A stretch of DNA of 64,000 nt from an uncultured delta proteobacterium (GCA_963711835.1 CAVQFQ010000019.1:16880-80879), one strand, 5' to 3'; positions 7,353 to 63,162 are shown, numbered from the stretch's first letter. Notes: a model not told the origin generated them from the letters alone. Numbers and translations: made by a program.

Positions 7353-7402
7353 CCCTGGACGCCTCGGATCTGCAAGCAACGAAACTTTTCAACCATCGAG
7401 GT
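7353..7402 (-). repeat. Fragment homologous to the 5' part of element F (30684-30735), inverted
   Basis: The reverse complement reads ACCTCGATGGTTGAAAAGTTTCGTTGCTTGCAGATCCGAGGCGTCCAGGGTG. Element F reads ACCTCGATGTTGCAAAAGTTTCGGAAGTTGCAGATCCGAGGCGTCCAGGGCG. Confidence 0.75.
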
Positions 7403-7404
7403 TA

Positions 7405-7710
7405 CCCTTATTAAGGGTCTTACAATAATATTTACCAACAGGGACCGGGGGGTCTTCTTTTCTGGGGTTGTCCAAAGGGTAACTCATCGCCCTATCCCGG
7501 CCCGGACGGCTAAGTAGGTTAGGTGCAGGGCATTCACTCAAGTCCGTTTCGGGCATTAGCGTAGGCCTGTCTCTGAATTAGATTCAAATTTTGGCCCGGT
7601 AAAGAAGCTTTGGGCTTGAAGGTGGACAACCCAGAAAAGAAGACCCCCCGGTCCCATTTAATGCAAGCTCCTCAATTTCATGTTAAGACTATGATGAGAC
7701 CCTTAATAAG
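7405..7710 (-). repeat. Palindromic structured element, copy A (core 7441-7655), inverted relative to copies B-E
   Basis: Core arms are GGGACCGGGGGGTCTTCTTTTCTGGGGTTGTCC and GGACAACCCAGAAAAGAAGACCCCCCGGTCCC. Outer stem is CTTATTAAGGGTCT (7407-7420) with AGACCCTTAATAAG (7697-7710). The interior shares GAATGCCC, GGGCCGG and CCCTTTGGACAA blocks with the other copies. Confidence 0.75.
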
Positions 7711-9126: not shown

Positions 9127-12100
9127 TTAGATCAATTTTTCTATCCTCACGGCGCAGACTTTCAACTCCGGGATCTTGGCTACCGGATCCAGGGCGGTCT
9201 GGGTCAGGGCATTGGCCGCGGCCTCGGCATAGTGGAAGGGAATGAAGATTGTTCCCCGGGGCGAGCGGTCAGTTATTTTTATCCTGGCTTCTAAAGCCCC
9301 CCGCCTGGACAGGACCCGCACCTGTTCCCAGTCCAAAAGTTTCAAGAAAAAGGCATCTCCGGGGGAGATTTCGATCAGACATTCCGGGGCCATTTTTTCC
9401 AATTCGGGACTCTTCCGGGTCATGGTCCCGGTGTGGTATTGATAGAGCAGACGCCCGGTGGTCAGCGTCAAAGGGAACTCGGCATCCGTCGGTTCCTGGG
9501 GACCTTGGTAGGCAACAGGATGGAACTTTCCTAACCCCCGGCTAAAGCGATCCTTATGGAGGTAAGTAGTCCCCGGATGATCCAGGGTCGGGCAGGGCCA
9601 TTGTAGGCCGATCCGGTTGAGGCGGGCATAGGTCATGCCGGCGTAGGAGGGTGTTACGGTGCGGATCTCTTCAAAAATTTCTTCGGCATTTTTATAAGCC
9701 ATAGGTAGGCCCATCCGGGCGGCCAAGTCGCTGATGATCTCCCAATCCGGGCGGGCCTTTCCAAGAGGAGCGATGGCCTGACGGACCCGCTGGACCCTCC
9801 GTTCGGTGTTGGTAAAGGTCCCATCCTTCTCGGCAAAAGAAACGCCGGGTAAAACGACCTGGGCCAAGCGGGCCGTTTCGGTCAAAAAGATATCCTGAAC
9901 TACCAGAAAATCCAAGGCCTTCAATGCCTGGAGGACATGGTGGGCATCGGGATCCGAGAGGACCGGATTCTCTCCAAAAACATATAATCCCCGAACCTCT
10001 TTTTTTAAGGCCCCATCAAACATTTCCATCAAGGTCAGGCCGGGCTGATCGGGAAGATCCCGGACCCCCCAGGCCCTTTCCATTTTTTCCCTGGCCTCCG
10101 GATCGCTCACCTTTTGATAGCCCGAAAAAACATCAGGCAGGCCGCCCATATCGCAGGCCCCCTGGACGTTGTTCTGCCCCCTCAGGGGATTTACTCCGGC
10201 CGCCGGGAAGCCTACGTTGCCGCAGAGCATGGCCAGATTGGCCAGGGCCTTGACGTTATCGGTCCCGTGGCTGTGCTGGGTAATACCCATGGTGTAGTAA
10301 ATACCGGCCCGGTCTCCGGCGTACAGGCGGGCAGCTTGGTTCAGATCCTTTTCCGGGATGCCGCAAATTTTGGAAACGAAATCCGGGGTGAACTGGGCCA
10401 GGGATTGCTTCCATTCCTCGAACCCTTCAGTCCTGGACCGGACATATTCCTGGTCATAAAGGTCCTCATCCAGGATGATTTTCATAAGTCCGTTGGTCCA
10501 GGCAATATCTGTTCCCGGACGGGGGTGGAGCCAGAGGGTGGCCAGATCAACCAGTTCGATTTTTCTGGGATCCACCACAATCAGCTTGGCCCCGTGTTGC
10601 TGAACGGCTCGCTTGACGGCCGCCCCGATGATGGGATGGTTTTCAGTGGTATTGGAGCCGGTAATCAGGAGGACCTTGGCCTGTTCGATCTCGGCTATGG
10701 AATTGGTCATGGCCCCACTTCCGAAAGCGGCAGCCAGACCGGCTACCGTGGTGGAGTGTCAGAGGCGGGCGCAATGGTCTATGTTGTTGGTTTTAAAAAC
10801 CGCCCGGACCAATTTCTGCATCAGATAGTTTTCTTCATTGGTGGCCCGGGCCGAGGTCAAGGTCGCCAGGGTATTGGGGCCATAGGTTTCCTGCAGCTTT
10901 TGGAAGCGGCCGGCCACCAGATTCAAGGCCTCTTCCCAGGAGGCCTCGCGGAAACCATTCCCCTCCCGGATCAGAGGGGTGGTCAGGCGATCCGGGTGTT
11001 GGATGAAATCGAATCCAAATCGGCCTTTGACACAGAGATGTCCGAAATTAGGGGGCACCCGTTCCACCCCATTGACCCGGACAATTTTCTGGCCGGCTTT
11101 TTCCAGATAGAGCTGGCAACCTACCCCACAATAGGTGCAGGTGGTCTTGGTCCGTTCCAGTTGCCAGGGGCCCGGCAGACCCGGCGTCTTTTCAGTTAAG
11201 GCCCCGGTGGGACAGTTGGCCAGACAAAGTCCGCAAGAGACGCAGCGTTCGTTGATGGTCGCCGAATAGGCCGGAGGCCCGCCTTCGCTTAGGGCCGGCA
11301 CTTCCGGAAGTTCAAAGGCCTTTTGGATTTGGTAATCCGAACAGCCACGGAGGCACCTGCGGCAGGTGATGCACTTGTTCGGGTCGATATGAATGAAGGG
11401 ATGGTACTCCTTAAGAGGGTGCATCCGCTTCGACCAGACCGGCAGCTTATCGATCTCCACTCCGTATTGGACCGAATAAGCCCTTAAACGGCAGTCAAAG
11501 AGATCCTGGCAGCCGCAGGAGAGGCAGCGGGAGGCCTCCTGCATGGCTTCTTCGGCTTTTATGGTGCATTCCACTTCCTCAAAGCTGTTGCGCCTTTTCT
11601 CGATCGGGATATGGGGTTGAAGGACCCGGGGTCTTGGGAGAATTCCTTCAAAATTGACGGGATCTACTTCAGTCCATTTCCCTTTGCTGATATTGAAAGG
11701 TTTTTTCTCCGGATGGATGAATCCCTGGGTCAGAACCTGATGGATGGAAATAGCCGCTCTCCGACCGTCGGCGATGGCCTGGATAACGGTCTGGGGGCCC
11801 CGGAAAAGATCGCCCCCGATAAAAAGATCGGGAATGGAGGTCTGGAGGGTTTGGGGATCGGCTTTAGGGGTTCCCCATTTAGTCAGGGCCAGATTGATCA
11901 ATTCCGGATCCTTTTCGAGAAAGGAAAGATCCGCATATTGGCCGATGGCCACTACGGCGGTATCGGCTTGTATAACGGTTTCCGACCCGGGGATTGGAAA
12001 GGGCCGGGGACGGCCTCCGCTTTCCGATTCACGGAGTTCATTTTGGATATATTCCATCCCGGAAAAACGGCCCTCTTGAGAAAGAATCCGGGTGGGAGAA

Positions 12101-13248
12101 ACAAGAAAGTGCATTTTTAGGCCTTCCTGTTCCGCCGCCGCCACTTCTTCGGGATGGGCGGTCATTTCATTTGGGGACCGGCGATAGAGCAGGGTCACTT
12201 CTTCGGCTCCCAGCCTGAGACAGGTCCTGGCCGCGTCCATGCCGGTATTCCCGTTACCGATGATCAGGACCCTTTTCCCAATTTCAACAGGATCCTTGGC
12301 GGCTATCCGGATAAGCAATTCCAGGGCCGGAATGATGCCGGGCAGGTCTTCACCGGGAAGCCCCAGGCGGGTGGATTTCCAGCACCCGGTGGCCAATAGG
12401 ACGGCTTCAAAGCCCTGGCTGCGGAGGCTGCTGAGAGTAATATCGGAGCCGAAGACCTGATTGACCCGGACCTCGACTCCCAGGTCCAGGATCTGCTGGA
12501 TTTCTTTGTCCAAAATGGCGTTGGGTAAACGGTATTCGGGAATGGCATAGCGGAGCAAGCCCCCCAACTGGGGTTTGGCCTCAAAAATATGGGCGGTATG
12601 CCCTTTGAGACGCAGGTAATGGGCGGCTGAAAGGCCTCCGGGTCCTCCGCCGATCACGGCGACTTTATGTCCGCTGTCTTTGGCTAACGGAGGTTTGAAA
12701 GGAATGTCCTCCAACAGAGCGTAATCGGCCATGAAGCGTTTTAAGGGATTGATGGCCAGGGGCTGATCTACCCGATGGCGGCGGCAGACCTCTTCGCAGG
12801 GATGAGGACAAACCCGGCCGATAACCATGGGAAGAGGATTCCTCTCCTTGATGACCTTTAAGGCCTGGCTGAATTCCCCCCGGCTGATATGGGCCAGATA
12901 ACCCTGGATATCGATCCCGGCCGGGCAGCTCAACTGGCAGGGAGCCAGACAATCTCCGTAATGTTGTTCCAAAAGGAGTTCCAAAATGGCCCGGCGGGAA
13001 GCATGGACCAGAGGGGAGTCGGTCTGGACGACCATCCCTTCCTTTATGGGAGCGGCGCAGGAGGCGATCAGCCGATCCTCCCCTTCAACCTGAACCACGC
13101 AAATGCGGCAGGATTCCTCGGGTTTTAAAAGGGGGTGATGGCAGAAGGTGGGAATAAAAATGCCGGCCTCGGTAGCCGCTTCCAGGATGGTTTTTCCGGA
13201 TGGCGAAGTCACCATTCGTCCATCAATGGACAGGGAAACGTTAGACAT
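9127..13248 (-). CDS. fdhA: Selenocysteine-containing formate dehydrogenase alpha subunit fused to N-terminal 2Fe-2S ferredoxin, GltD-like NAD(P)H/FAD module and 4Fe-4S domains (1373 codons including Sec830)
   Basis: Track ORFs 10759-13248 and 9127-10710 are in the same frame and separated only by TGA at 10759-10761. The junction reads [35 protein letters not shown], the classical FdhA active-site Sec context. Other motifs are VAVIGGGPGGLSAA, IIGNGNTGMDAA and CTYCGVGC. Confidence 0.85.
10729..10747 (-). promoter_or_regulatory. SECIS-like hairpin 11 nt downstream of the UGA
   Basis: RNA reads GGUAGCC-GGUCU-GGCUGCC, a 7-bp stem (one G-U pair) with a GGUCU loop, at the spacing expected for a bacterial SECIS. 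Confidence 0.7.
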
Positions 13249-27299: not shown

Positions 27300-27370
27300 T
27301 TCCCGGTTGCCTTCTCCCCCCGGCCACGTCCATCTCGAACCTTTCCTGCCCCAACCCTTTTTTTTAATCC

Positions 27371-27682
27371 TTTGGTGTCGTTCAAAAGTTGTGGCATTAT
27401 ATTTCTGATACCCGATGGAAAGGGACCGGGGGTCTTGATTTCAAGGATTGTCCGCCAAAACGCTGGCAACCCTGAACCCGGGCAGGAAGTTTGTAAGTGG
27501 GTTTAAAAACAGGCCTACACCAAAGCGATTTATCGGCTTAGGTGAATGCCCGGCTCTTAACCAACTTAGAAATTCGGGCCGGGTTGGGGCTACGGATTAC
27601 CTTTGCGGACAATCCTTGAAATCAAGACCCCCGGTCCCTAAGTCAGACGATAATACGCCAGTGCCATAACTTTTGAACGTTA
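27371..27682 (+). mobile_element. Palindromic structured element, copy B (core 27422-27638), flanked by direct repeat TTAATCC
   Basis: The 34-bp arms are perfectly complementary (GGGACCGGGGGTCTTGATTTCAAGGATTGTCCGC). Outer inverted repeat is CGTTCAAAAGTTGTGGCA / TGCCATAACTTTTGAACG. TTAATCC occurs at 27364-27370 and 27683-27689. Confidence 0.7.
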
Positions 27683-27743
27683 TTAATCCGTTAAGGAAGT
27701 GGTACTTAGCCAGACCTTTTAACGGCCTTTCCTGATTTATGAT

Positions 27744-30683: not shown

Positions 30684-30940
30684 ACCTCGATGTTGCAAAA
30701 GTTTCGGAAGTTGCAGATCCGAGGCGTCCAGGGCGAAGCTGTATATGCATACCGCGAGCCCTGGACAACAAAGGAGATGCGGCTTCCCAGACTTTCCCGA
30801 AGGGTAAAAATTGATCGATACTTTTTAGGCTGCTAAACCTCACCTGGGGTGAATTTTAGTCTCAACTCTAAAATCGTTAGAACGCACTGTTTAATTGATG
30901 AAAAACCCTTTATCGATCAATTTTTATGCAACTTCGAGGT
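30684..30940 (+). repeat. Structured palindromic element F, distantly related to copies A-E
   Basis: Closing stem is ACCTCGATGTTGCAAAAG with TTTTATGCAACTTCGAGGT. Inner stems are AAAATTGATCGATA/TATCGATCAATTTT and GTCCAGGG/CCCTGGAC. It also contains CACC-TGG-GGTGAAT and the CAAAAGTT word shared with the outer repeats of B, C and D. Confidence 0.55.
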
Positions 30941-40626: not shown

Positions 40627-40693
40627 GGGGTCGAGGGTTCGAGTGAAAAACACTAAAAAGTAAAATGGCCTTTCCTGGAACCCTGGAATCCCC
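40627..40693 (+). repeat. Intergenic hairpin repeat, family G copy 2
   Basis: GGGGTCGAGGGTTC-GAGTGAAAAA...-GAACCCTGGAATCCCC, with the same GGGTTC-NAGTGAAA organisation as 24426-24490. Confidence 0.5.
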
Positions 40694-40743
40694 GGTCCCT
40701 GTTGGTCACTATTATTTTCAAACTGTTAATAAAGGGAGGCAGC

Positions 40744-44974: not shown

Positions 44975-46285
44975 ATGAAAGAGATACAGGTAGGTTTGAT
45001 TGGGTTGGGGACGGTCGGGACCGGGGTGGCCAAGATCCTTTTCGAAAAGGCGGAACACCTGCAGGCCATGGTCGGCCTTCCCCTGCGCTTAAAAAAAATC
45101 GCCGACCTTGATCTTGAGAAGGACCGGGGCCTGCCGATCCCCCAGGGAATACTGACCGACCGGGCCCAGGCTATTTTGGACGACCCGGATATCTCCATTG
45201 TAATCGAATTGATCGGAGGTCTGGAGCCGGCCGGGGCCTTTATCTTAGCGGCCCTGAAAAAAGGGAAACATGTGGTGACGGCCAACAAGGCCCTGCTGGC
45301 CCAAAAAGGGGACGAAATTTTTGAAGAGGCTGTTAGGAGCCGGGCCGATGTCGGCTTTGAAGCCAGCGTCTGCGGGGGCATACCGGTTATTCTGGCCTTG
45401 AAGCAGGGACTCGTGGCCAACGAAATCGAATCCATCCACGGCATTGTCAACGGCACATCCAATTATATTCTGACCCAGATGACCGAGGCCGGCCTGCCTT
45501 ATGAAGAGGCCTTAAAGGAAGCCCAGGCCAAGGGTTATGCCGAGGCGGATCCAACCCTGGATGTTGAAGGATGGGACACCTTCCACAAGTTGGCCATACT
45601 GATGCACCTGGCCTATGGTGCTCCCTTGGGGAAAGAGCCTATCTTCGTCGAGGGCATCACCGGCATTACTCCATTGGATATCACCTATGCCCGGGAATTC
45701 GGCTATCGCATCAAACTGCTGGCCGTTTGCCGCCAGGACGGCAATTTCCTGGAAGCCAGGGTCCATCCGGCCATGATTCCATCCGGCCATATGCTGGCCA
45801 ATGTTCAGGGGGCTTACAATGCCCTTTATATCCACGGGGACTCGGCGGGGGATATCTTGCTCTACGGCCAAGGGGCCGGGATGATGCCTACCGCCAGTGC
45901 CGTAGTCAGTGACCTGGTCGAGATTGGTCGCAACCTGGCCAACGGGATCGCCCGGAGGATCCCTCCGGCTTTGTCGGCCCGGGGATTTCAGAAAAAGGGC
46001 CTGGCCCTGAAGCCTTTTTCTGAGGTGGTGGCCCGGTATTATATTCGGTTTTCCGCTTTGGATAGTCCCGGCGTTCTCTCTTCGATTTCCGGCATCTTGG
46101 GCTCCCATCGCATCAGTATTGCCTCGGTCATTCAAAAAGGCCGGGGAATAAGCAGTTCGGTTCCCATTGTTATGATGAGCCACGAGGCCAAAGAGTCGGA
46201 TGTCCAGGAAGCCATCAAAGAAATCGACCGGCTGCCGGTCATTACCAGCCGAACCGTCATTATTCGGGTGGAAGCGCCGGAATAA
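44975..46285 (+). CDS. hom: Homoserine dehydrogenase
   Basis: VGLIGLGTVGTGV, VVTANKALLA, GIVNGTSNYILT and a C-terminal ACT domain. Confidence 0.95.
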   Translation: MKEIQVGLIGLGTVGTGVAKILFEKAEHLQAMVGLPLRLKKIADLDLEKDRGLPIPQGILTDRAQAILDDPDISIVIELIGGLEPAGAFILAALKKGKHVVTANKALLAQKGDEIFEEAVRSRADVGFEASVCGGIPVILALKQGLVANEIESIHGIVNGTSNYILTQMTEAGLPYEEALKEAQAKGYAEADPTLDVEGWDTFHKLAILMHLAYGAPLGKEPIFVEGITGITPLDITYAREFGYRIKLLAVCRQDGNFLEARVHPAMIPSGHMLANVQGAYNALYIHGDSAGDILLYGQGAGMMPTASAVVSDLVEIGRNLANGIARRIPPALSARGFQKKGLALKPFSEVVARYYIRFSALDSPGVLSSISGILGSHRISIASVIQKGRGISSSVPIVMMSHEAKESDVQEAIKEIDRLPVITSRTVIIRVEAPE

Positions 46286-46300
46286 AAAATCAGGGCTGAC

Positions 46301-47530
46301 ATGGCGCGAAAATATATCATTCTGGTTGGAGATGGGATGGGGGATTATCCCCAGGAAGCCCTGGGAGGGAAGACGCCTTTGGAAGCGGCTTACACGCCGC
46401 ATATGGACGCCATTGCCTCAAAGGGGATTATGGGCTGGGTGCAGACTATTCCGCCCGAGTGCGAACCGGGCAGCGACATTGCCAATCTCTCCATCTTGGG
46501 TTATGACCCTCTCCAGTATCACCGGGGCCGGGCCCCCTTTGAGGCCCTCAGTATGGGCCTCTCTTTGAAAGACCATGAGGTGGCTTTCCGCTGCAATCTG
46601 GTTTTTCTGGATCATTCGGAGAAAGGGCCCATTACCATGGGCTCTTACAGTGCCGGCCATATTTCGACGGAAGAGGCTAAGTCCATCATCACGGATTTGA
46701 ACGTCTTTTTCCAGGGAGGCCCGGTATCTTTTTACCCGGGTGTCGGTTATCGCCATATTGTCATCTGGGAAGGAGCGGATCCGGCCATTAAGACCCTGCC
46801 GCCCCACGACCTGACCGGCCAGAAGGTTACCGAGTATCTTCAGGCCGAAGGACCCCTGGCTCCTGTGGTTACGCTTATGCGCCGGTCCTGGCCTTTTCTA
46901 AAGGACCACCCCATCAATAAGGCCAGGAAAGAAAGGGGACTTCTCCCGGCCAATTCGATCTGGTTGTGGGGGCAGGGCTGCCGTCCCAGGATGCCTCTGT
47001 TCCCGGACCGCTTCGGCATCCGGGGAGGCATGATCTCGGCCGTGGATTTGTTAAAAGGGTTGGGCCTGGCAGCCGGGTTGGAATCCTTGCCGGTTCCGGG
47101 GATAACCGGTTACCTGGATACCAATTATAAGGGGAAGGCTGAAAAAGCCCTGGAGGCCCTTCAGGAAAAGGACCTGGTTTTTCTTCATGTCGAGGCCCCG
47201 GACGAAGCTTCCCATGAGGGGAGTCTGGAGAAAAAATTAAAAGCCATTGAGGACTTCGACCGGGAAGTGGTGGGGCCTGTGCTGGAAGGGCTTTCTCAGG
47301 GGGGACCTTTTTCCCTGCTGGTCCTGACCGATCATTTCACTCCCCTGGAGGTGATGACCCATACCAGGGAGCCGGCTCCTCTGGGTCTGCTCAGGTCGGA
47401 AGACGAGAAAAATCCAAAAATGAACAGGGGCTATTCGGAAAGATCCGCTTTGGAAGGGGAGGCCGCCTTTCCCAAAGGGGACGATCTGATGCCCTGGTTT
47501 ATACAAAGAGGCCTGAGGCCCAAGGCTTAA
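46301..47530 (+). CDS. Cofactor-independent phosphoglycerate mutase family protein (archaeal ApgM type), possibly a non-canonical homoserine kinase
   Basis: 409 aa. KYIILVGDGMGDYP, HVEAPDEASHEG and LVLTDHFTP are metalloenzyme-superfamily ApgM motifs. It starts 16 nt after hom. Confidence 0.8.
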   Translation: MARKYIILVGDGMGDYPQEALGGKTPLEAAYTPHMDAIASKGIMGWVQTIPPECEPGSDIANLSILGYDPLQYHRGRAPFEALSMGLSLKDHEVAFRCNLVFLDHSEKGPITMGSYSAGHISTEEAKSIITDLNVFFQGGPVSFYPGVGYRHIVIWEGADPAIKTLPPHDLTGQKVTEYLQAEGPLAPVVTLMRRSWPFLKDHPINKARKERGLLPANSIWLWGQGCRPRMPLFPDRFGIRGGMISAVDLLKGLGLAAGLESLPVPGITGYLDTNYKGKAEKALEALQEKDLVFLHVEAPDEASHEGSLEKKLKAIEDFDREVVGPVLEGLSQGGPFSLLVLTDHFTPLEVMTHTREPAPLGLLRSEDEKNPKMNRGYSERSALEGEAAFPKGDDLMPWFIQRGLRPKA

Positions 47531-47561
47531 GGTTCAAGGGAAAACAAGGACGAACTTCTCT

Positions 47562-47963
47562 ATGAAATATTTTACCACTACCTATCGGGTTATTTACGGC
47601 GACGTCGATTCCATGAAAGTGGCCTACTATGCCAATTATTTACGCTGGTTTGAAATCGGCCGGACGGAGCTGATCCGCGATTTGGGATTGCCCTATGCCG
47701 AGATAGAAGCCAGGGGATACCTGCTGCCGGTCACCGAAGCCTACTGCAAATATGTCAAATCGGCCCATTATGATGAAAAGCTGCTGATCCAGACCGGGGT
47801 CAAATTCGTCCGCAAGGTTTCGATGCGTTTTGATTACCGGATCCTGAATCAGGAAAACGAGCTGCTGGTAGAGGGCCACACGGTGCATGCCTGTCTGGAT
47901 AAAGAAGGCAAATTTGCCCGGCTCCCGGAACCCCTCTTTGATCTGTTAAATAAATGGGATTGA
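47562..47963 (+). CDS. Acyl-CoA thioesterase, 4HBT/YbgC family
   Basis: 133 aa. YRVIYGDVDSMKVAYYANYLRWFEIGRTELIRDLG is a hotdog-fold YbgC-like signature. Confidence 0.85.
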   Translation: MKYFTTTYRVIYGDVDSMKVAYYANYLRWFEIGRTELIRDLGLPYAEIEARGYLLPVTEAYCKYVKSAHYDEKLLIQTGVKFVRKVSMRFDYRILNQENELLVEGHTVHACLDKEGKFARLPEPLFDLLNKWD

Positions 47964-48045
47964 AATTCCGGATTACGGTTCCGGCGTATTGCGCTTGACA
48001 TTTATAGGGAATAGTGAAAAAAATTTTATGAGTAATGCCATTCAT

Positions 48046-48367
48046 CGGTATCGTTCAAAAGTTGTGGCATTATATTTTTGATACACGATAGAAGGGGACC
48101 GGGGGTCTTGATTTCAAGGTTGTCCACCATAAACTCCTCACCTTGAAATCCCGCTTTTAGCGGGGCTGGAAGGGTGACGGTAATGCCTTAAGCAGGCCTT
48201 CACCAAAGCTGTTTGTCCGGTTGGGTGAATGCCCGGCTCTAAACCACCCTTAGAAATCAGGGCCGGATTGGTGGGAAGGATCACCCTTTGGACAAGCCTT
48301 GAAATCAAGACCCCCGGTCCCCCAGTCAGGAAATAATGCGCCAATGCCAAAATTTTTTAACGATACT
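48046..48367 (+). mobile_element. Palindromic structured element, copy C (core 48094-48322), flanked by direct repeat CATTCAT
   Basis: Arms are GGGGACCGGGGGTCTTGATTTCAAGGTTGTCCA / TGGACAAGCCTTGAAATCAAGACCCCCGGTCCCC (one bulge). The outer repeat GTATCGTTCAAAAGTTGTGGCA faces TGCCAAAATTTTTTAACGATAC. CATTCAT occurs at 48039-48045 and 48368-48374. Confidence 0.7.
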
Positions 48368-48392
48368 CATTCATTAGGATAAGGAATAAAAC

Positions 48393-50987
48393 ATGCTTAA
48401 AAAAATTCGCTGGAAATTTACTCTGATTGCCGTGCTGGTGGCCGTATCCATCCTTTTTATTATCCCCTCCCTGACTAAAAATTTTCCTTCCTGGTGGAAA
48501 CCGATTCTGCCCTCGGAAGGCATGCGTTTGGGTCTGGATTTGCAGGGCGGGATGCACCTGATCCTGAAGGTGGATTTAATCAAGGCTACCCGCAACCATC
48601 TGGAACTGGTCCAGCAGGATTTACGGGAAACCCTGAGGAAAAAGCAGGTCCCGGCCAGCCGGGGAGAGGTTGCCGGAGACAACCGGCTCAGTTTTCTGAT
48701 CCCCAACGCCGACCACTTGGCCCAGGTTCAAAAAACCATTAAGGAAGAATTCCCCAGCTTAACTCTCATCGCCACCCTGCCCAAACAGGAAGGGGTGCAG
48801 CTGGATATTGCTCTCAAGGAAAAAGAGATCAAGTCCATTACTGAGAATGCCCTTTCCCAGAGCCTGGAAATCATCCGCAACCGGATTGATCAGTTCGGGG
48901 TTACCGAGCCGACGATTGTGCGGCAGGGATCGGATGAGATCGTGGTTCAGTTGCCCGGGGTCAAGGATCCCCAAAGGGCCATGGATCTTATCGGCCGGAC
49001 CGCCCAGTTGGAATTTAAACTGGTGGATGCCGAGACCAAACTGGACCTGGCCGGCCTCATCGAACAGGCCGTTAGCAGCGGCAAGCTTAAAAGTGAATAC
49101 GGCCATGCCGACCTGAACCTGGCTCTGAAAGATGCGCTCCCGCTGGAAAGGGAAATCTTTATTCGAAAAGAGGTCAACCGGGAAACCGGCCGGGTCAGCC
49201 GGGTGCCGGTCTTGCTCTTTACCAAGACGTTGATGACCGGCGATGCCATCAAGACCGCCCAGGTTCAGATCGGAGGAAATTTTAACGAGCCCTATGTCAG
49301 CGTGACGCTGAATACCCATGGCAGCCGGGTTTTCGACCAGGTCACCCGGGACAATGTGGGCCGCCAGTTAGCCATTGTTCTGGATCAGGTGGTCCAATCG
49401 GCGCCGGTAATCCAGGAAAGGATATCCGGCGGCCAGGCCCAGATTACCGGCTCCTTCAGCATGGAAGAGGCCACCGATCTGGCTATCGTCCTGCGGGCCG
49501 GGGCCTTGCCGGCTCCGGTGCACATCGTTCAAAATGTAACTGTAGGCCCGTCTCTGGGGCTGGATTCCATCAACAAAGGTTTCCTGTCGGGTCTGGTGGG
49601 GACGGCCCTGGTCGTCTTGTTCATGATGTATTACTACCGTTTTTCCGGCCTGGTGGCCAACCTGGCCCTGTTCTTAAATGTGATTTTTATGATGGCTGCT
49701 TTGGGAATATTCCGGGCCACCCTGACCCTGCCCGGGATTGCCGGGATCATCCTCTCCATCGGAATGGCGGTGGATTCAAACGTCCTGATCTTTGAACGGA
49801 TGCGGGAGGAATTCCATGCCGGAAAGCCGGTCAAGTCCGGGGTGGACGGCGGTTATGACAAGGCTTTCTGGACCATCATCGATTCCCATGTTACAACTCT
49901 GATCACGGCCTTCGCCCTCTTTCTCTTCGGCTCGGGGCCAATTAAGGGCTTTGCCGTGACCTTGAGTATCGGCGTGATCTTTAACCTTTTCACCGCCCTT
50001 TTTTGCACCAGGGTGGTTTATGATTATCTCAGCGTCAAGCGGCGTCTCAAGGCCCTGCGCTTCGTGGAATTTATCAAGAAATCCCAAATCGATTTTATCG
50101 GCCTGAGGAAATACGCTTTTATCCTGTCCGGGATCCTGGTCCTGATCGGGATTATCGCCTTTGTTCAGATCAATCGGGGCGAGGCCAACCTGGGAGTGGA
50201 TTTTTCCGGAGGGACCATGGTCCAGTTCAAGGCCGCTCAATCCTTCCGGCTGGATAAAGTCCGCATGGCTTTAGTCCAAAGGGGTTTTAAGGATGCCGAA
50301 CTGCAGCAGGTGGCCAATGAAAATATTCTGATTGTGCGGACCAAGAAAGCTGAACAGTCGGTCGGCAAGGAGGCCGAGGCCATCGGCAAGGCCCTGCAGG
50401 AGGACTTCCCGGAACTCAAATTCGCCATGGAGAGCAAGGCCGAGATCGGGGCCTCGGTCAGCAGCGCCTTAAAGAAGGCGGCCCTGATCGCCATTGCCAT
50501 TTCCCTGGCGGGGATCATCATCTACCTGGGCTGGCGATTTGAACTGCGCTTCGGGGTGGCGGCCGCCATCGCCACCTTTCATGATGTCCTGGCCGTATTG
50601 GGGATCTTCTATCTGCTGGACAAGGAAATCACCCTGCTCATCATCACCGCTTTATTAACCCTGGCCGGGTATTCCCTGACCGATACCGTAGTGGTCTTTG
50701 ACCGTATCCGGGAAACCATGGGCCGCGGCGGCAAAAGGACCTTCGGGGAGATCATCAACATCAGCATCAACGAAGTCCTTTCGCGGACCATCATTACTTC
50801 CCTGACCGTCTTCCTGGTGGTCCTGGCCCTCTTCTTCCTGGGCGGGGTGGTCATCCATGATTTTGCCCTGGCCCTGCTCCTGGGGGTGGTGATCGGCACC
50901 TATTCCTCCATCTTTGTGGCTTCTCCTATTGTCTTTCACTGGCCGGGAAAGAAACAGAGAGGGAAGAGGGGAAGAAGCAAGAAATAA
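48393..50987 (+). CDS. secDF: Protein translocase subunit SecDF (fused SecD-SecF)
   Basis: 864 aa. GLDLQGGMHL and the first periplasmic domain, followed by two 6-TM halves. Confidence 0.95.
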   Translation: MLKKIRWKFTLIAVLVAVSILFIIPSLTKNFPSWWKPILPSEGMRLGLDLQGGMHLILKVDLIKATRNHLELVQQDLRETLRKKQVPASRGEVAGDNRLSFLIPNADHLAQVQKTIKEEFPSLTLIATLPKQEGVQLDIALKEKEIKSITENALSQSLEIIRNRIDQFGVTEPTIVRQGSDEIVVQLPGVKDPQRAMDLIGRTAQLEFKLVDAETKLDLAGLIEQAVSSGKLKSEYGHADLNLALKDALPLEREIFIRKEVNRETGRVSRVPVLLFTKTLMTGDAIKTAQVQIGGNFNEPYVSVTLNTHGSRVFDQVTRDNVGRQLAIVLDQVVQSAPVIQERISGGQAQITGSFSMEEATDLAIVLRAGALPAPVHIVQNVTVGPSLGLDSINKGFLSGLVGTALVVLFMMYYYRFSGLVANLALFLNVIFMMAALGIFRATLTLPGIAGIILSIGMAVDSNVLIFERMREEFHAGKPVKSGVDGGYDKAFWTIIDSHVTTLITAFALFLFGSGPIKGFAVTLSIGVIFNLFTALFCTRVVYDYLSVKRRLKALRFVEFIKKSQIDFIGLRKYAFILSGILVLIGIIAFVQINRGEANLGVDFSGGTMVQFKAAQSFRLDKVRMALVQRGFKDAELQQVANENILIVRTKKAEQSVGKEAEAIGKALQEDFPELKFAMESKAEIGASVSSALKKAALIAIAISLAGIIIYLGWRFELRFGVAAAIATFHDVLAVLGIFYLLDKEITLLIITALLTLAGYSLTDTVVVFDRIRETMGRGGKRTFGEIINISINEVLSRTIITSLTVFLVVLALFFLGGVVIHDFALALLLGVVIGTYSSIFVASPIVFHWPGKKQRGKRGRSKK

Positions 50988-51013: not shown

Positions 51014-51134
51014 CGGAAATTCGAAATCCGAAACAAATCCTAATGATCAAAACTCAAAATTCAAAACGTTTGGTTTTGATAATTGAAATTTGAAAATTTG
51101 TGCTTGTTTCGGATTTCATGCTTCGAATTTCGAG
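51014..51134. repeat. Long AT-rich imperfect hairpin of low-complexity words between convergent secDF and cytochrome b genes (possible bidirectional terminator)
   Basis: CGGAAATTCGAAATCCGAAACAA pairs with TTGTTTCGGATTTCATGCTTCGAATTTCG. The inner GATCAAAAC...GTTTTGAT segments are also complementary. Confidence 0.5.
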
Positions 51135-52333: not shown

Positions 52334-52527
52334 AGTTGACTCTGTTCAGAATTTCTTTTTTTAGGTATAATTTCCTTAAAAGTAAATCCCGGCTCTGCCG
52401 GAGGAATCCCTGAGGTTGACAAATCTCCCTCAATCCCCCTTCCCAAAGGGGAAAGTTTCCCCTCCCTTTGAAAAAGGCAGGTCGGGAAGGATTTACAAGG
52501 CCTTTTGTTTTTTTAAAATATTATTCC

Positions 52528-52905
52528 ATGGAAAACAAGGAAGAAAGAATAACCCGCGATCAGCTCCTGTTCAAGGAATTCATCGCCCTTCTGGTTTTAT
52601 TGTTTTTCTGCTGCTGGCTGGCGGTCTGGGTTCCCGCCCCTTTGTCCCAGCCGGGAGGAGAGATGCTACCTCCCGGGGTGACGGTTCAGGCCCCCTGGAT
52701 CTTCGCCGGCCTGCAGACCTTGCTGCTCTATTTCCATCCCCTTGTGGCAGGTCTTGTCTTTCCCCTGGTCGTACTCCTCTTCCTGGTCCTATTGCCCCTG
52801 GAGGCCAAAACCCGACTCCACCCCGCCCTGACGCGAATTCTTTTCGCCCTCCTCCTACTGGGAGGAATCGCCCTTACCCTTTATGGTCTTTTTCGAATAA
52901 AATGA
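52528..52905 (+). CDS. Small three-TM membrane protein resembling cytochrome b C-terminal part / b6f subunit IV
   Basis: ATG 52528 inside track ORF 52468-52905. VQAPWIFAGLQTLL resembles the PEWY-loop region of subunit IV. It is divergent from the Rieske gene. Confidence 0.55.
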   Translation: MENKEERITRDQLLFKEFIALLVLLFFCCWLAVWVPAPLSQPGGEMLPPGVTVQAPWIFAGLQTLLLYFHPLVAGLVFPLVVLLFLVLLPLEAKTRLHPALTRILFALLLLGGIALTLYGLFRIK

Positions 52906-52909
52906 TCGG

Positions 52910-53239
52910 AATAGTCCCAAAGTTACGTGAATCTCAAACCGATGGGGTCGCTTCTTAAAATATTAAAACACCCCAAAGGGCTTCAGAGGCCTTGATTCCA
53001 AGGATTGTCCGCCAAAACGCCAGCCGCCTGAACCCGGGCAGGAAGTTCATAATGGGGTTTAGAAACAGGCCAACACCAAAGCTATTTATCGTCTTGGGTG
53101 AATGCCCGGCTCCCAACCAACTTAGAAATTAGGGCCGGGTTGGGGCTACGGATTACCTTTTGGACAACCTTGAAATCAAGACCCCCGAAGCCCTCTATGA
53201 ATGGATAGCTTAAAAATCACGTAACGTTGGGACAAACTC
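52910..53239 (+). mobile_element. Palindromic structured element, copy D (core 52977-53194), flanked by 10-bp direct repeat AAATGATCGG
   Basis: AAATGATCGG occurs at 52900-52909 (it includes the TGA stop of the upstream gene) and at 53240-53249. Outer inverted repeat is GTCCCAAAGTTACGTGA / TCACGTAACGTTGGGAC. The core interior closely matches copy B. Confidence 0.75.
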
Positions 53240-53270
53240 AAATGATCGGGTATTTGTTTTTTTGACTGGC

Positions 53271-57384: not shown

Positions 57385-58542
57385 ATGAGTGAGACGAAGT
57401 CATTCGATTTTGAACAAGGACCCATTCGTCCCCCCAGTGAGGCCCGGAGCTTATTGCTGCGGGTGACCCGGAATTGTTCCTGGAACAAGTGCCTCTTTTG
57501 CCCGGTCTATAAAGGCCAGACCTTTTCCCGGCGGAGCACGGAAGAGATCAAAGGAGACATCCGGACTATAAAAAATATCATCGAGGATCTAAAAGGGATT
57601 TCCTGGAAATTGGGACGCAGCGGTCAAATCGATGATGCCGTCATAACCGAAGTGTTCCAGCAACCTTCTTACAGCCAGGCCTACCGGAATGTGGCCGCCT
57701 GGATGTATTATAAGGAATACAATGTCTTTCTTCAGGACGGCAACAATCTGGTCCTTCCAACGGCCGAGTTGGTCGCGATTCTCGAATTTCTGCGCCGTGA
57801 AATTCCTCAGGTACGGCGCATCACCTCCTATGCCCGGGCCAAGACCGCCGGGCGGAAAACGGTGGCGGAATTGACCGCCATCCGGAAAGCGGGTTTGGAT
57901 CGGATCCATATCGGTTTGGAAAGCGGTTCGGATGCCGTTTTGAAGCTGATGCAGAAAGGGGTAACCGCCGCCGAGCATATCGAGGCCGGCCAAAAAGTGA
58001 AACAGGCCGGCATGGCCCTGTCCGAATATGTCATGCCGGGACTGGGGGGAAAGACCTTGTGGCAGGACCATGCCCTGGAAACGGCCCGGGTCTTAAATGC
58101 CGTGAATCCTGATTTTATCCGTCTCCGATCCTTGCGGGTTCCCCCCCGGGTGCCCCTGCATCAATGGGTGCAGGACGGCCGTTTTGTGCTGTTAAACGAT
58201 GATGAAACCGTTGAGGAAATCCGCTTGATGGTAGATCATCTGGAGGGCATTACCAGCACCCTGACCTCCGACCATATCATGAACCTTCTGGAAGATGTCA
58301 GCGGGACCCTGCCTCAGGACATGGGCCGTATCCTGGCCGCTCTGGATGCCTACCTGAATCTTTCTCCGGAAGAAAAATTGATCTATCGCTTCGGCCGTCG
58401 CGGCGGCGCCTACCGTTCGGTGCAGGACATGAAAGACCTGGTCTTGCGGCGAAAAATTAAAAAAGCGATTGAAGAAGTCCGGCAGACCTATCCCCAAGGA
58501 GTCGAGTCGTTTATCACGGAATTGGTAGATCAATATATTTAG
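57385..58542 (+). CDS. Radical SAM domain protein
   Basis: 386 aa. GPIRPPSEARSLLLRVTRNCSWNKCLFCPVYK gives a CX4CX2C cluster motif at 57475-57501, followed by TIM-barrel-like GLDRIHIGLESGS. Confidence 0.8.
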   Translation: MSETKSFDFEQGPIRPPSEARSLLLRVTRNCSWNKCLFCPVYKGQTFSRRSTEEIKGDIRTIKNIIEDLKGISWKLGRSGQIDDAVITEVFQQPSYSQAYRNVAAWMYYKEYNVFLQDGNNLVLPTAELVAILEFLRREIPQVRRITSYARAKTAGRKTVAELTAIRKAGLDRIHIGLESGSDAVLKLMQKGVTAAEHIEAGQKVKQAGMALSEYVMPGLGGKTLWQDHALETARVLNAVNPDFIRLRSLRVPPRVPLHQWVQDGRFVLLNDDETVEEIRLMVDHLEGITSTLTSDHIMNLLEDVSGTLPQDMGRILAALDAYLNLSPEEKLIYRFGRRGGAYRSVQDMKDLVLRRKIKKAIEEVRQTYPQGVESFITELVDQYI

Positions 58543-58591
58543 TGGCTTATACAGCCTATTTTAAGAATGTATCTCTATCTTTCCAATATCA

Positions 58592-58809
58592 GGTATAGGG
58601 GGGTCTTATTTTTTTAAGTTATCCACCCCAAAGCCATAAACTTCTTTGCCGGGCCAAACTGCGAACCCTATTTTATCAGCAAGCCTACACCCAAGCTGGA
58701 AATAAGCTTTGGTGAATGCCCTACCTAACGTAAACTTAATTATTCGGGCCGAATTAGGGGCTCTTCGTCACCCTTTGGACAACTTAAAAAAATAAGACCC
58801 CCCTACACC
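58592..58809 (+). repeat. Palindromic structured element, copy E (most divergent)
   Basis: Arms are GGTATAGGGGGGTCTTATTTTTTTAAGTTATCCA / TGGACAACTTAAAAAAATAAGACCCCCCTACACC. The interior has GGTGAATGCCC, GGGCCG and CCCTTTGGACAA. Confidence 0.7.
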
Positions 58810-58906
58810 ATACTGCAGCATTTCCCCACTGCTTAACGATTTCATTTTGACATTTGATGTTTCCGGAAGTACGATGAAACAAAAAAACAGGACAGGAGGA
58901 AAAGCC

Positions 58907-61618: not shown

Positions 61619-62272
61619 ATGAAACTTCAATTTATTGAGGCCCGGGATCTGCCGGATGCCTGGTTCCAGTGCGTTTATGAAATCCTCGATCGCGGCCAGG
61701 AATATGTCATTGACCGGGGAAGCTGCGCCGGGCAGAAGCGCTTGGAATTCGACTATATTACGGTCCGGATCAAATTTCCGGGGACCCGGCCCTTGATTCC
61801 CGATATCCCTCCTGCACTGGGAATTCCCAATCCTGTTGCGGAGGGCTATGTGGAACAATATCTGCCTTATCTGATGACCGCCGCCAAACAGCCCAATGAG
61901 GATTATACCTATGGCCAGTATCTGGAGCCCCAGATCCGGGAAGTGATCCGCATGTACCGGGAAGAAGGCTACGGCACCAATCAGGCCTTTATGACCGTGG
62001 GCGATCCCCAAACCATCTTTCTCAATGACCCTCCCTGCCTGCGGGGTATCGACACCCGCATCCGCGACGGCCGTCTGCATTTTTTTGTCTATTTCCGGTC
62101 CTGGGATTTATGGAACGGCTTCCCGGCCAATCTGGCGGCCATCCAGATGCTCAAGGAGTACATGGCTGCCGAAATCGGGGTAGGGGAGGGCGAGATCATC
62201 GCCGCCAGCAAAGGTCTGCATCTATACGATTACGTCTGGGAACTGGCCAAACTGCGGGCCTTAAAAAAGTAA
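61619..62272 (+). CDS. Thymidylate synthase-like protein (short archaeal-type ThyA / deoxynucleotide methylase-hydroxymethylase family)
   Basis: 217 aa. DYTYGQYL, DPPCLRGID (catalytic Cys context) and FRSWDLWNGFPANL. Confidence 0.7.
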   Translation: MKLQFIEARDLPDAWFQCVYEILDRGQEYVIDRGSCAGQKRLEFDYITVRIKFPGTRPLIPDIPPALGIPNPVAEGYVEQYLPYLMTAAKQPNEDYTYGQYLEPQIREVIRMYREEGYGTNQAFMTVGDPQTIFLNDPPCLRGIDTRIRDGRLHFFVYFRSWDLWNGFPANLAAIQMLKEYMAAEIGVGEGEIIAASKGLHLYDYVWELAKLRALKK

Positions 62273-62305
62273 GGCAGAAATACCGACTGCGCAGGTATTT
62301 CTGCC
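62273..62305 (+). terminator. Hairpin GGCAGAAATAC-N11-GTATTTCTGCC immediately after the thyA-like stop
   Basis: 11-bp perfect stem. It lies inside the 184-bp direct repeat, and a second degenerate copy is at 63127-63159. Confidence 0.5.
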
Positions 62306-62310
62306 AAGAA

Positions 62311-62980: not shown

Positions 62981-63162
62981 GGCCAATCTGGCGGCTATTC
63001 AAATTCTCAAGGAATATGGCGGCCGAAATCGGGGTAGGGGAGGGCGAGATCATCGCCGCCAGCAAAGGCCTGCATTTGTACGATTATGTCTGGGAACTAG
63101 CCAAACTGCGGGCCTTAAAAAAGTGAGGCAGAAATACCGACTGAGCCGGCATTTCTGCCAAG
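62981..63162 (+). pseudogene. Orphan duplicate of the thyA-like 3' end plus terminator hairpin (direct repeat of 62125-62308)
   Basis: GGCCAATCTGGCGGC...GGGGTAGGGGAGGGCGAGATCATCGCCGCCAGCAAAGG...AAACTGCGGGCCTTAAAAAAGT(A/G)AGGCAGAAATACCGACTG... is shared. The second copy has an indel near 63010-63020 and has no upstream part of the gene. Confidence 0.8.

Follow-up and report, generated by a model that had tools for sequence, protein, structure and literature searches.

Bacterial MITEs, among them Correia/NEMIS of Neisseria, ERIC/IRU of enterobacteria and bcr1 of Bacillus, are non-coding, multicopy, intergenic elements of approximately 300 bp that are bounded by terminal inverted repeats, flanked by direct target-site duplications and able to form, as whole units, a long stem-loop; for bcr1, stem changes that compensate each other have been reported (PMC3184786). 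The sequence discussed here, at positions 58592-58809 of a 64,000-nucleotide stretch of DNA from an uncultured delta proteobacterium (the window), is probably a copy of a nested, near-palindromic family of non-autonomous DNA transposons (MITEs), the arms of which evolve concertedly at the DNA level. The kind of element is already known and the family is new. It shares the properties listed above with the described MITEs but differs from them in that an internal core of 215 bp, not the termini, is the most conserved part, in that this core is found in at least five terminal shells and in both orientations, and in that the stem of the core combines a conserved bulge with two conserved boxes that are separated by rapidly evolving segments. 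The layered construction, with a single conserved core inside several different terminal shells, is unusual.

REPINs, the RAYT-mobilised doublets of REP sequences, are likewise dispersed, hairpin-forming intergenic repeats that behave as a replicating population within a genome lineage; they have conserved end motifs and a variable spacer in which compensated changes preserve complementarity, and an IS200/IS605-like single-strand mechanism has been proposed for them (PMC3116915), so that no target-site duplication would be expected. REPINs are approximately 70-110 nt long and are built of two short REP palindromes, whereas the unit described here measures 215 bp (304-332 bp with its shell), has arms of 32 bp and carries 8-bp duplications in at least three shell types. 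Identity with REPINs or REP sequences was rejected on account of the 215-bp core and the flanking 8-bp duplications, the compensated hairpin being the only one of these features that is shared. The attC sites of integrons also are imperfect palindromes that contain conserved boxes and extra-helical bases and remain paired as their sequence changes, but they measure 57-141 bp and lie in cassette arrays beside an integrase, whereas the units found here are at least 215 bp long, are spaced 5-20 kb apart among housekeeping genes and have duplications of the transposon type. Identity with attC was rejected for units of at least 215 bp that are flanked by pheT, uvrC, secDF and similar genes in a window that encodes no integrase.

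The window contains five copies (A to E) of the core, a quasi-palindromic, non-coding sequence of approximately 215 bp, with pairwise identities of 62-91%. All five are intergenic, and the sequences and coordinates quoted for them in a preliminary description are all present in the window, including GCCCG at 27548-27552 with CGGGC at 27575-27579 and CCAAC at 27561-27565 with GTTGG at 27583-27587. Each core sits within a variable shell of approximately 45-65 bp per side, and the shells recur in different genomes. Copy E, the core at 58592-58809 (+ strand), is a 218-bp imperfect palindrome with arms at 58592-58625 and 58776-58809 that are 94% complementary, the two mismatches both being A.C. It is surrounded by shell-2, the left part of which (58538-58591, + strand; TTAGTGGC...AGAATGTATCTCTATCTTTCCAATATCAG) overlaps the stop codon (58540-58542) of the upstream radical-SAM gene and the right part of which (58810-58860, + strand) is degenerate; the outer boundaries of both parts are approximate. 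A promoter-like box, TTGACA-17-TACGAT (58847-58875), is present in the right part of this shell, ahead of the next gene. Copy A (composite 7407-7710, - strand; core 7441-7655) has a shell-3 with the ends TTATTAAGGGTCT and AGACCCTTAATAA. Copies B (composite 27374-27684, + strand; core 27421-27639; terminal inverted repeats GGTGTCGTTCAAAAGTTGTGGCA and TGCCATAACTTTTGAACGTTATT) and C (composite 48047-48367, + strand; core 48094-48322) are enclosed by the terminal inverted repeats of shell-1, and copy D (composite 52908-53239, + strand; core 52978-53194) by those of shell-5 (GGAATAGTCCCAAAGTTACGTGA and TCACGTAACGTTGGGACAAACTC). A solo remnant at 40690-40735 (+ strand) consists of the final 10 nt of a core arm (CCCCGGTCCC) and the right part of a shell-3, with 83% identity to the corresponding end of copy A. 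The window is a housekeeping region (ligA, thrS, pheST, uvrC, tatC, dnaK, hrcA, hom, secDF) in which the neighbours of the copies include pheT/uvrC, thioesterase/secDF and cytochromes, and neither a transposase nor an integrase is encoded in its 64 kb. The ORFs that overlap the copies vary in strand and frame from copy to copy, none being conserved: the element has no coding capacity.

The shells were examined in the 110-140 nt on the outer side of the cores. Software detection of terminal repeats and duplications placed repeat ends imprecisely, and its output was read manually for the duplications of shell-5 and of copies B and C. Shell-1, which encloses copies B and C and many others, has the terminal inverted repeat GGTATCGTTCAAAAGTTGAGGCAA and its complement; shell-5 (copy D and at least eight others) has GGGATAGTCCCAAAGTTACGTGA, equal to that of shell-1 at 15 of 23 positions; and shell-6 has CCTTGCCCCCCTTCACT. 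In shell-3 the terminal inverted repeat is TTATTAAGGGTCTC, with ambiguous ends and an ambiguous duplication, and the homology of copy A to two copies in other genomes (L022 and L023, 81%) stops exactly at the shell ends. Direct duplications of 8 bp, identical at seven or eight of the eight positions, flank copies B, C and D and at least ten further copies with shells 1, 5 and 6. At copy B, AATCCTTT (27366-27373) is matched at 7/8 positions by AATCCGTT (27685-27692); at copy C the pair is CATTCATC (48039-48046) and CATTCATT (48368-48375); and at copy D AAATGATC is perfectly repeated (52900-52907 and 53240-53247). Duplications at other loci are AAAAAGTT (L024), TAAATTTT (L018), AACCCTTA (L016), AATAATTC (L066), AATTATTT (L134) and GGAAAAGA (L022b), and shell-5 copies with a duplication include L129, L043, L099, L107 and L133. 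Since these duplications lie outside the shell repeats, copies B, C and D with their shells constitute MITEs that measure 311, 321 and 332 bp. The outer stems, previously described as differing completely between copies while remaining paired, are thus real inverted repeats, but they belong to the enclosing transposon shell as its terminal inverted repeats and not to a single folded element. As read from its ends, the whole unit is a nested MITE, with composites of 304-332 bp, and the duplications indicate that the composite inserts by an 8-bp staggered cut that leaves direct target-site duplications. Shell-2 is the commonest shell in the MAGs and carries subterminal hairpins, with neither a terminal inverted repeat nor a target-site duplication found in the sequence examined; by analogy it may be an end structure of the IS200/IS605 type.

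A DDE transposase supplied in trans would move the composite and make the 8-bp duplications. Elements of the IS6 family transpose through cointegrates and are not known as a typical source of MITE derivatives. The IS6 family (IS26 / IS15-delta-I) also has target-site duplications of 8 bp, and the inverted repeat of shell-1 (GGTATCGTTCAAAA) shares 9 of 14 positions with that of IS15-delta-I (GGCACTGTTGCAAA; PMC5328509), a weak resemblance to be taken as a lead only; no IS6-type transposase was found with the element in the 809 kb around copies. No transposase and no autonomous element with the same ends was found in these 809 kb. In the 3-14-kb pieces around the copies, no transposase-like protein was present among the recurrent proteins and no RAYT, HUH or tyrosine recombinase gene was seen. 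Clustering of ORFs across loci revealed no recurrent neighbouring gene, the clusters being ordinary paralogue families (ABC ATPase, NtrC-type regulator, SDR, acyl-CoA dehydrogenase and similar) that were named by eye from the sequences.

Relatives of the core were sought by its invariant interior motifs (GTGAATGCCC ... CTTA ... GGGCCG), and true copies were confirmed by nhmmer. In a genome collection 27 loci matched the motif pattern, of which 20 were true copies, from the four 'Deltaproteobacteria' MAGs JAZDOU01, MGQB01, JACQYK01 and CAWAKF01, and none of the loci derived from the window's own genome; in a metagenome collection 106 of 113 matching loci were true copies. The core is thereby known from more than 120 loci in four related MAGs and in metagenomes, and removal of duplicates left 93 distinct full-length cores from 84 sources. 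The same DNA pattern had no matches among IMG/VR viral contigs, and composite B had no match by BLAST among PLSDB plasmids. The copies are dispersed in unrelated intergenic sites, and this dispersal together with the target-site duplications points to mobility. No clean empty site was found among the loci collected: the sole close ortholog, the metagenome contig L127, is also occupied, and in the more distant syntenic contigs L080, L103 and L128 the gene content near the sites differs from that of the window.

The position of the copies, which is strictly intergenic and among housekeeping genes, could also be that of host-domesticated cis-elements like REP/BIME or ERIC, selected locus by locus as stabilisers of mRNA ends, transcription barriers or sites for nucleoid proteins. 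Such a role would account for the invariant interior motifs, for the small terminator-like hairpins followed by a T-run at each arm and for the retention, with a compensated change, of an orthologous copy in L127, from a strain 3.5% divergent across the 4-kb locus. It is nonetheless very improbable, because target-site duplications show arrival by transposition; copies decay and become truncated (40690-40735, L016b and L023b); copy positions are not common to the related genomes sampled, one very close strain excepted; and orientation relative to the gene on the 5' side has no clear bias (16 copies co-oriented and 9 opposite, by a crude longest-ORF heuristic).

Within the shell, the core is bounded by a perfect or near-perfect inverted repeat of 31-33 bp, the closing stem P1, which from outside to inside comprises a variable segment of 5-6 bp, the conserved box GGGGGTCTT, a variable segment of 9-11 bp and the conserved box TTGTCC. 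A single unpaired base lies by the inner box, on the right arm in 41 copies and on the left arm in 18, and is absent from 30. The pairs of P1 in 90 copies comprise 2709 Watson-Crick, 36 G.T, 29 A.C and 24 transversion mismatches, and 36 of these copies have no mismatch at all. Identity between the two arms of the same copy is 96.8%, compared to 78.7 +/- 0.8% when right arms are reassigned to other copies (z = 22). In a covariance-model alignment of 84 copies, P1 is paired at 97.9% versus 80.3% in shuffled data, its covariation score is 0.48 versus 0.14, double changes are found at 27 of 32 pairs, and none of 500 shuffles matches any of these measures. The two arms of P1 evolve in concert, as the preliminary description had noticed from five copies. 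Its expectation that neutral decay of transposon ends leaves uncompensated mismatches is sound: such mismatches are present at approximately 3% of pairs, on top of differences between lineages at approximately 20% of arm positions. The mismatches are mostly transitions and are strand-symmetric, which is the spectrum expected from neutral decay after a perfect start. Between nearest-neighbour copies, 168 compensated differences were counted versus 182 in a single arm; the arms of these neighbours diverge by 10% and the interior by 7.7%, with a mismatch within copies of just 3.2%. Differences between arms often consist of entire blocks that have been exchanged on both arms.

P1 encloses an imperfect palindrome in which the mismatched 'loops' CAGGCC, GTGAATGCCC and CCGGGCC/GGGCCGG are nearly invariant; across 87 copies, from at least five genomes, these motifs and CTTAG vary little or not at all. 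Because the interior structures predicted by RNAalifold on MAFFT alignments were unstable, alternating between a rod and local hairpins, a fixed set of six candidate helices (34 pairs) was scored twice, on 87 copies aligned by MAFFT and on a model-fitted alignment, which leans towards structure. The interior helices were paired at 74.3% versus 74.1% in shuffled data on the MAFFT alignment (score 0.099 versus 0.111) and at 75.1% versus 74.5% on the model-fitted alignment (covariation score 0.104 versus 0.108), with 12 double-change pairs on the latter versus 14.0 expected. Interior pairing equal to that of shuffles reflects only the conservation of columns. Covariation in the 84-93 copies is accordingly a property of the terminal repeat, with none in the non-terminal helices, which is in essence the sequence pattern that the preliminary description had named as refuting it. 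The interior 5-bp helix CCAAC/GTTGG that had been thought to covary is paired in only 59.6% of copies, and the CCACC/GGTGG of copy C stands in a register three columns off that of copies B and D and is therefore not covariation of the same pair. Its proposed partner in an H-type pseudoknot, GCCCG/CGGGC, is essentially invariant and thus holds no covariation information, and the pseudoknot does not survive the larger sample, with 73.5% pairing versus 73.8% in shuffled data. A pseudoknotted RNA fold is not supported, both pseudoknot pairing and interior covariation being equal to shuffles in 84-87 copies. The invariance of the interior motifs and the persistence of the bulge imply that the arms are not simply recopied in each generation and that something sequence-specific is selected; most likely, as judged from their conservation, the motifs are putative cis-acting protein-binding sites needed for propagation.

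A further reading makes the core a structured non-coding RNA gene, or a cis-acting RNA element, of either strand that travels with the transposon shells as a passenger; purifying selection on RNA features would then maintain the long stem and the conserved loops. In favour of such an RNA, each copy folds as a long rod of very low energy (z = -7 to -13) on either strand; unpaired motifs of 6-11 nt are invariant across five genomes; additional hairpins inserted at the apex resemble expansion segments of RNA; and a promoter-like box in shell-3, TTGACA/TTAACA-17-TATTAG/CATTAA, points into the core, as seen by eye and not flagged by a consensus scan. On the other side, the terminal repeat alone covaries, and non-Watson-Crick standard pairs such as G-U are rare in P1 although 27 of its 32 pairs vary. 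The mismatches of P1 are alike on both strands (36 G.T versus 29 A.C in 90 copies), and the wobble-type counts of the interior, 179 versus 284 between strands, are dominated by a few columns. The six transition mismatches of copies D and E that would be G-U pairs in a minus-strand transcript, part of a strand clue that had been called ambiguous, are correct for those two copies, but the asymmetry vanishes in the full set. Neither strand has the better folding energy overall (44 of 87 copies favour the minus strand, p = 0.16), neighbouring genes show no clear bias of orientation, and in some lineages the apex loop is probably inverted. A consistent promoter is lacking from most shells, and the only terminator-like sites that were flagged are weak mini-hairpins with a T-run inside the P1 arms, on both strands. 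Rfam gave no match at the gathering score in the whole window and none at E <= 10 for copy B with its flanks. An RNA is scarcely credible on this evidence, and RNA base-pairing would not be the selected property: of the two readings offered earlier, homogenisation of the arms within the element fits and a selected RNA structure or pseudoknot does not. Where the terminal inverted repeat alone covaries, wobbles are missing and the strands are alike, even perfect covariation of a long stem does not argue for a structured RNA.

Rearrangements of the core point to inversion or conversion at the level of DNA. Within one type of shell the core can face either way, having been found flipped relative to the asymmetric shell spacers in shells 1, 2, 3, 4 and 5. 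The apex is probably also inverted in some lineages: the apex loop (GAAAC versus GTTTG/ATTTAT) of the lineages of copies B, C and D is closer to the reverse complement of the loop of other lineages, and reverse-complementing raises its identity from 0.51 to 0.61, a modest signal. At L016:2820-3033 the right internal loop, conserved elsewhere, now reads as the complement of the left loop, and among near-identical cores the outermost 6 bp have been exchanged en bloc on both arms (GGGACC/GGTCCC versus GGCTTC/GAAGCC). L127 is the ortholog of window positions 45549-49535, with 96.5% identity, and its core differs from that of copy C by a 12-nt indel and four substitutions, compared to 0-1 differences in the shell. 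The indel is a 12-nt mini-hairpin insertion (48151-48162) that copy C carries and L127 lacks. Two of the four substitutions (C>T and G>A) fall on the single P1 pair 48100/48316, which is C-G in copy C and T-A in L127; the chance that two among four random substitutions hit one pair complementarily is, by a rough estimate, approximately 0.005. The compensated pair would follow from conversion of one arm by the other or from substitution of a paralogous copy for the entire core. In the reading preferred here, of a MITE with concertedly evolving arms, complementarity would be kept at the DNA level by recombination of one inverted arm with the other or by template switching from arm to arm; gene conversion from copy to copy, across the conserved boxes, may also keep the palindrome symmetric; and selection would favour those copies that have retained the ability to form the hairpin, or that offer a pair of identical ends, and that can still propagate. 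With its block swaps, its flips and a compensated change between orthologs, the family is a clear natural case of concerted evolution of inverted repeats in a mobile element.

The flips and the multiplicity of shells also bear on another explanation, in which the core is itself independently mobile and structure-specific, folding as single-stranded DNA that is recognised by an enzyme of the HUH or tyrosine type, in the manner of REPINs, IS200/IS605 ends or integron attC sites, and invading the centres of palindromic repeats without target duplication, so that the shells would be unrelated MITEs that it has colonised. One core, facing either way, is found at the same position in five or more unrelated shells, and the outermost variable segment of the arm travels with the core and not with the shell (GGGACC is present in both shell-1 and shell-3). 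The core boundary has no direct repeat in the copies compared, mismatches and a bulge are conserved in an otherwise perfect stem, and the subterminal hairpins of shell-2, with no terminal inverted repeats or duplication, are like ends of the IS200/IS605 type. This explanation predicts empty shells, but none of the 36 shell-1 and 24 shell-5 repeat matches in 809 kb is core-less; the apparent solo shell-5 repeat at L092:58 adjoins a truncated core at the contig start. Moreover, G.T and A.C are equally frequent, so that no single folded strand is favoured; the flips can be explained more simply by inversion between 32-bp arms; and no gene for an HUH enzyme or tyrosine recombinase was found near the copies. 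An independently mobile core is therefore unlikely. The equally unlikely form of the idea in which the core is a self-standing module with its own recombinase would have it recognised by structure, as folded single-stranded DNA or possibly as an RNA-templated unit, and homing into the centres of palindromes, with the perfect stem, the invariant unpaired bases and the bulge providing specificity. If true, mobility of the core on its own would make it a new kind of structure-specific element, and a self-standing core would be a large, MITE-colonising analogue of the substrates of attC or REPIN systems. That shells are never seen apart from the core fits a single element, which by itself would not account for the presence of one core in at least five shells.

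At five copies per 64 kb in the window, the family is dense in uncultured Deltaproteobacteria/Desulfobacterota-like genomes, and it breaks metagenome assemblies: numerous metagenome contigs terminate inside the element, as is expected for a high-copy repeat.

Several loci from related metagenome-assembled genomes or metagenomes carry structural variants of the MITE core, the conserved imperfect palindrome of about 215 bp. The apex, at the centre of the palindrome, holds 45-300 nt of additional stem-loops in L007:6037-6343, L018:720-1023, L015, L016:499-757, L017, L103 and L106, and the GTGAATGCCC module is tandemly duplicated in L030, L034, L042, L054, L106 and L118. The right internal loop, which is conserved as GGTGAATGCC, reads GGTGTAGGC in L016:2820-3033, the complement of GGCCTACACC on the left; a formerly asymmetric loop is now palindromic in this copy. 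Within the window, copy C contains a 12-nt mini-hairpin insertion (48151-48162, CCGCTTTTAGCG) that is shared with L048 but is missing from the orthologous copy on metagenome contig L127 and from most sister copies.

The intergenic site of copy D seems to be a hot spot for insertions. Its counterpart in L128 is occupied by a different composite of core and variable surrounding shell. At L128:160-1045, beside a region homologous to window positions 52335-52896, the contig has approximately 800 nt of additional coding sequence and, in place of copy D, a composite in which shell-1 (the shell type found around copies B and C) encloses a C-type core. L128 also contains, at positions 1631-1653, a 23-nt part of a 50-nt sequence that immediately adjoins copy A (7353-7402) and has an inverted second occurrence with 86% identity after tatC (30684-30733); this 50-nt sequence may represent another short dispersed repeat. 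At the start of both arms of copy A (7441-7456, 7640-7655) there is a small terminator-like hairpin, GGGACC..GGTCTT, and then a T-rich run; because the arms are symmetric, the hairpin is present on both strands. The left end of the shell of copy E (58538-58542) and the stop codon of the radical-SAM gene upstream overlap, and the right end of the shell contains a promoter-like box, TTGACA-17-TACGAT (58847-58875), ahead of the next gene.

Elsewhere in the window, two adjacent ORFs on the minus strand (9127-10710 and 10759-13248) match positions 146-672 and 1-128 of the formate dehydrogenase alpha profile, with NuoG/GltD-like domains upstream. The two ORFs look like a single gene with an in-frame stop, which would probably be a TGA selenocysteine codon. 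A direct repeat of approximately 185 nt (62125-62308 and 62981-63162) has 86-93% identity and a spacing of 854-856 nt, and each copy is terminated by a 33-nt hairpin, GGCAGAAATACCGACTG.G..GG.ATTTCTGCC. An AT-rich hairpin with 45-nt arms of 76% complementarity and a 5-nt loop is located just 3' of secDF (51023-51117).
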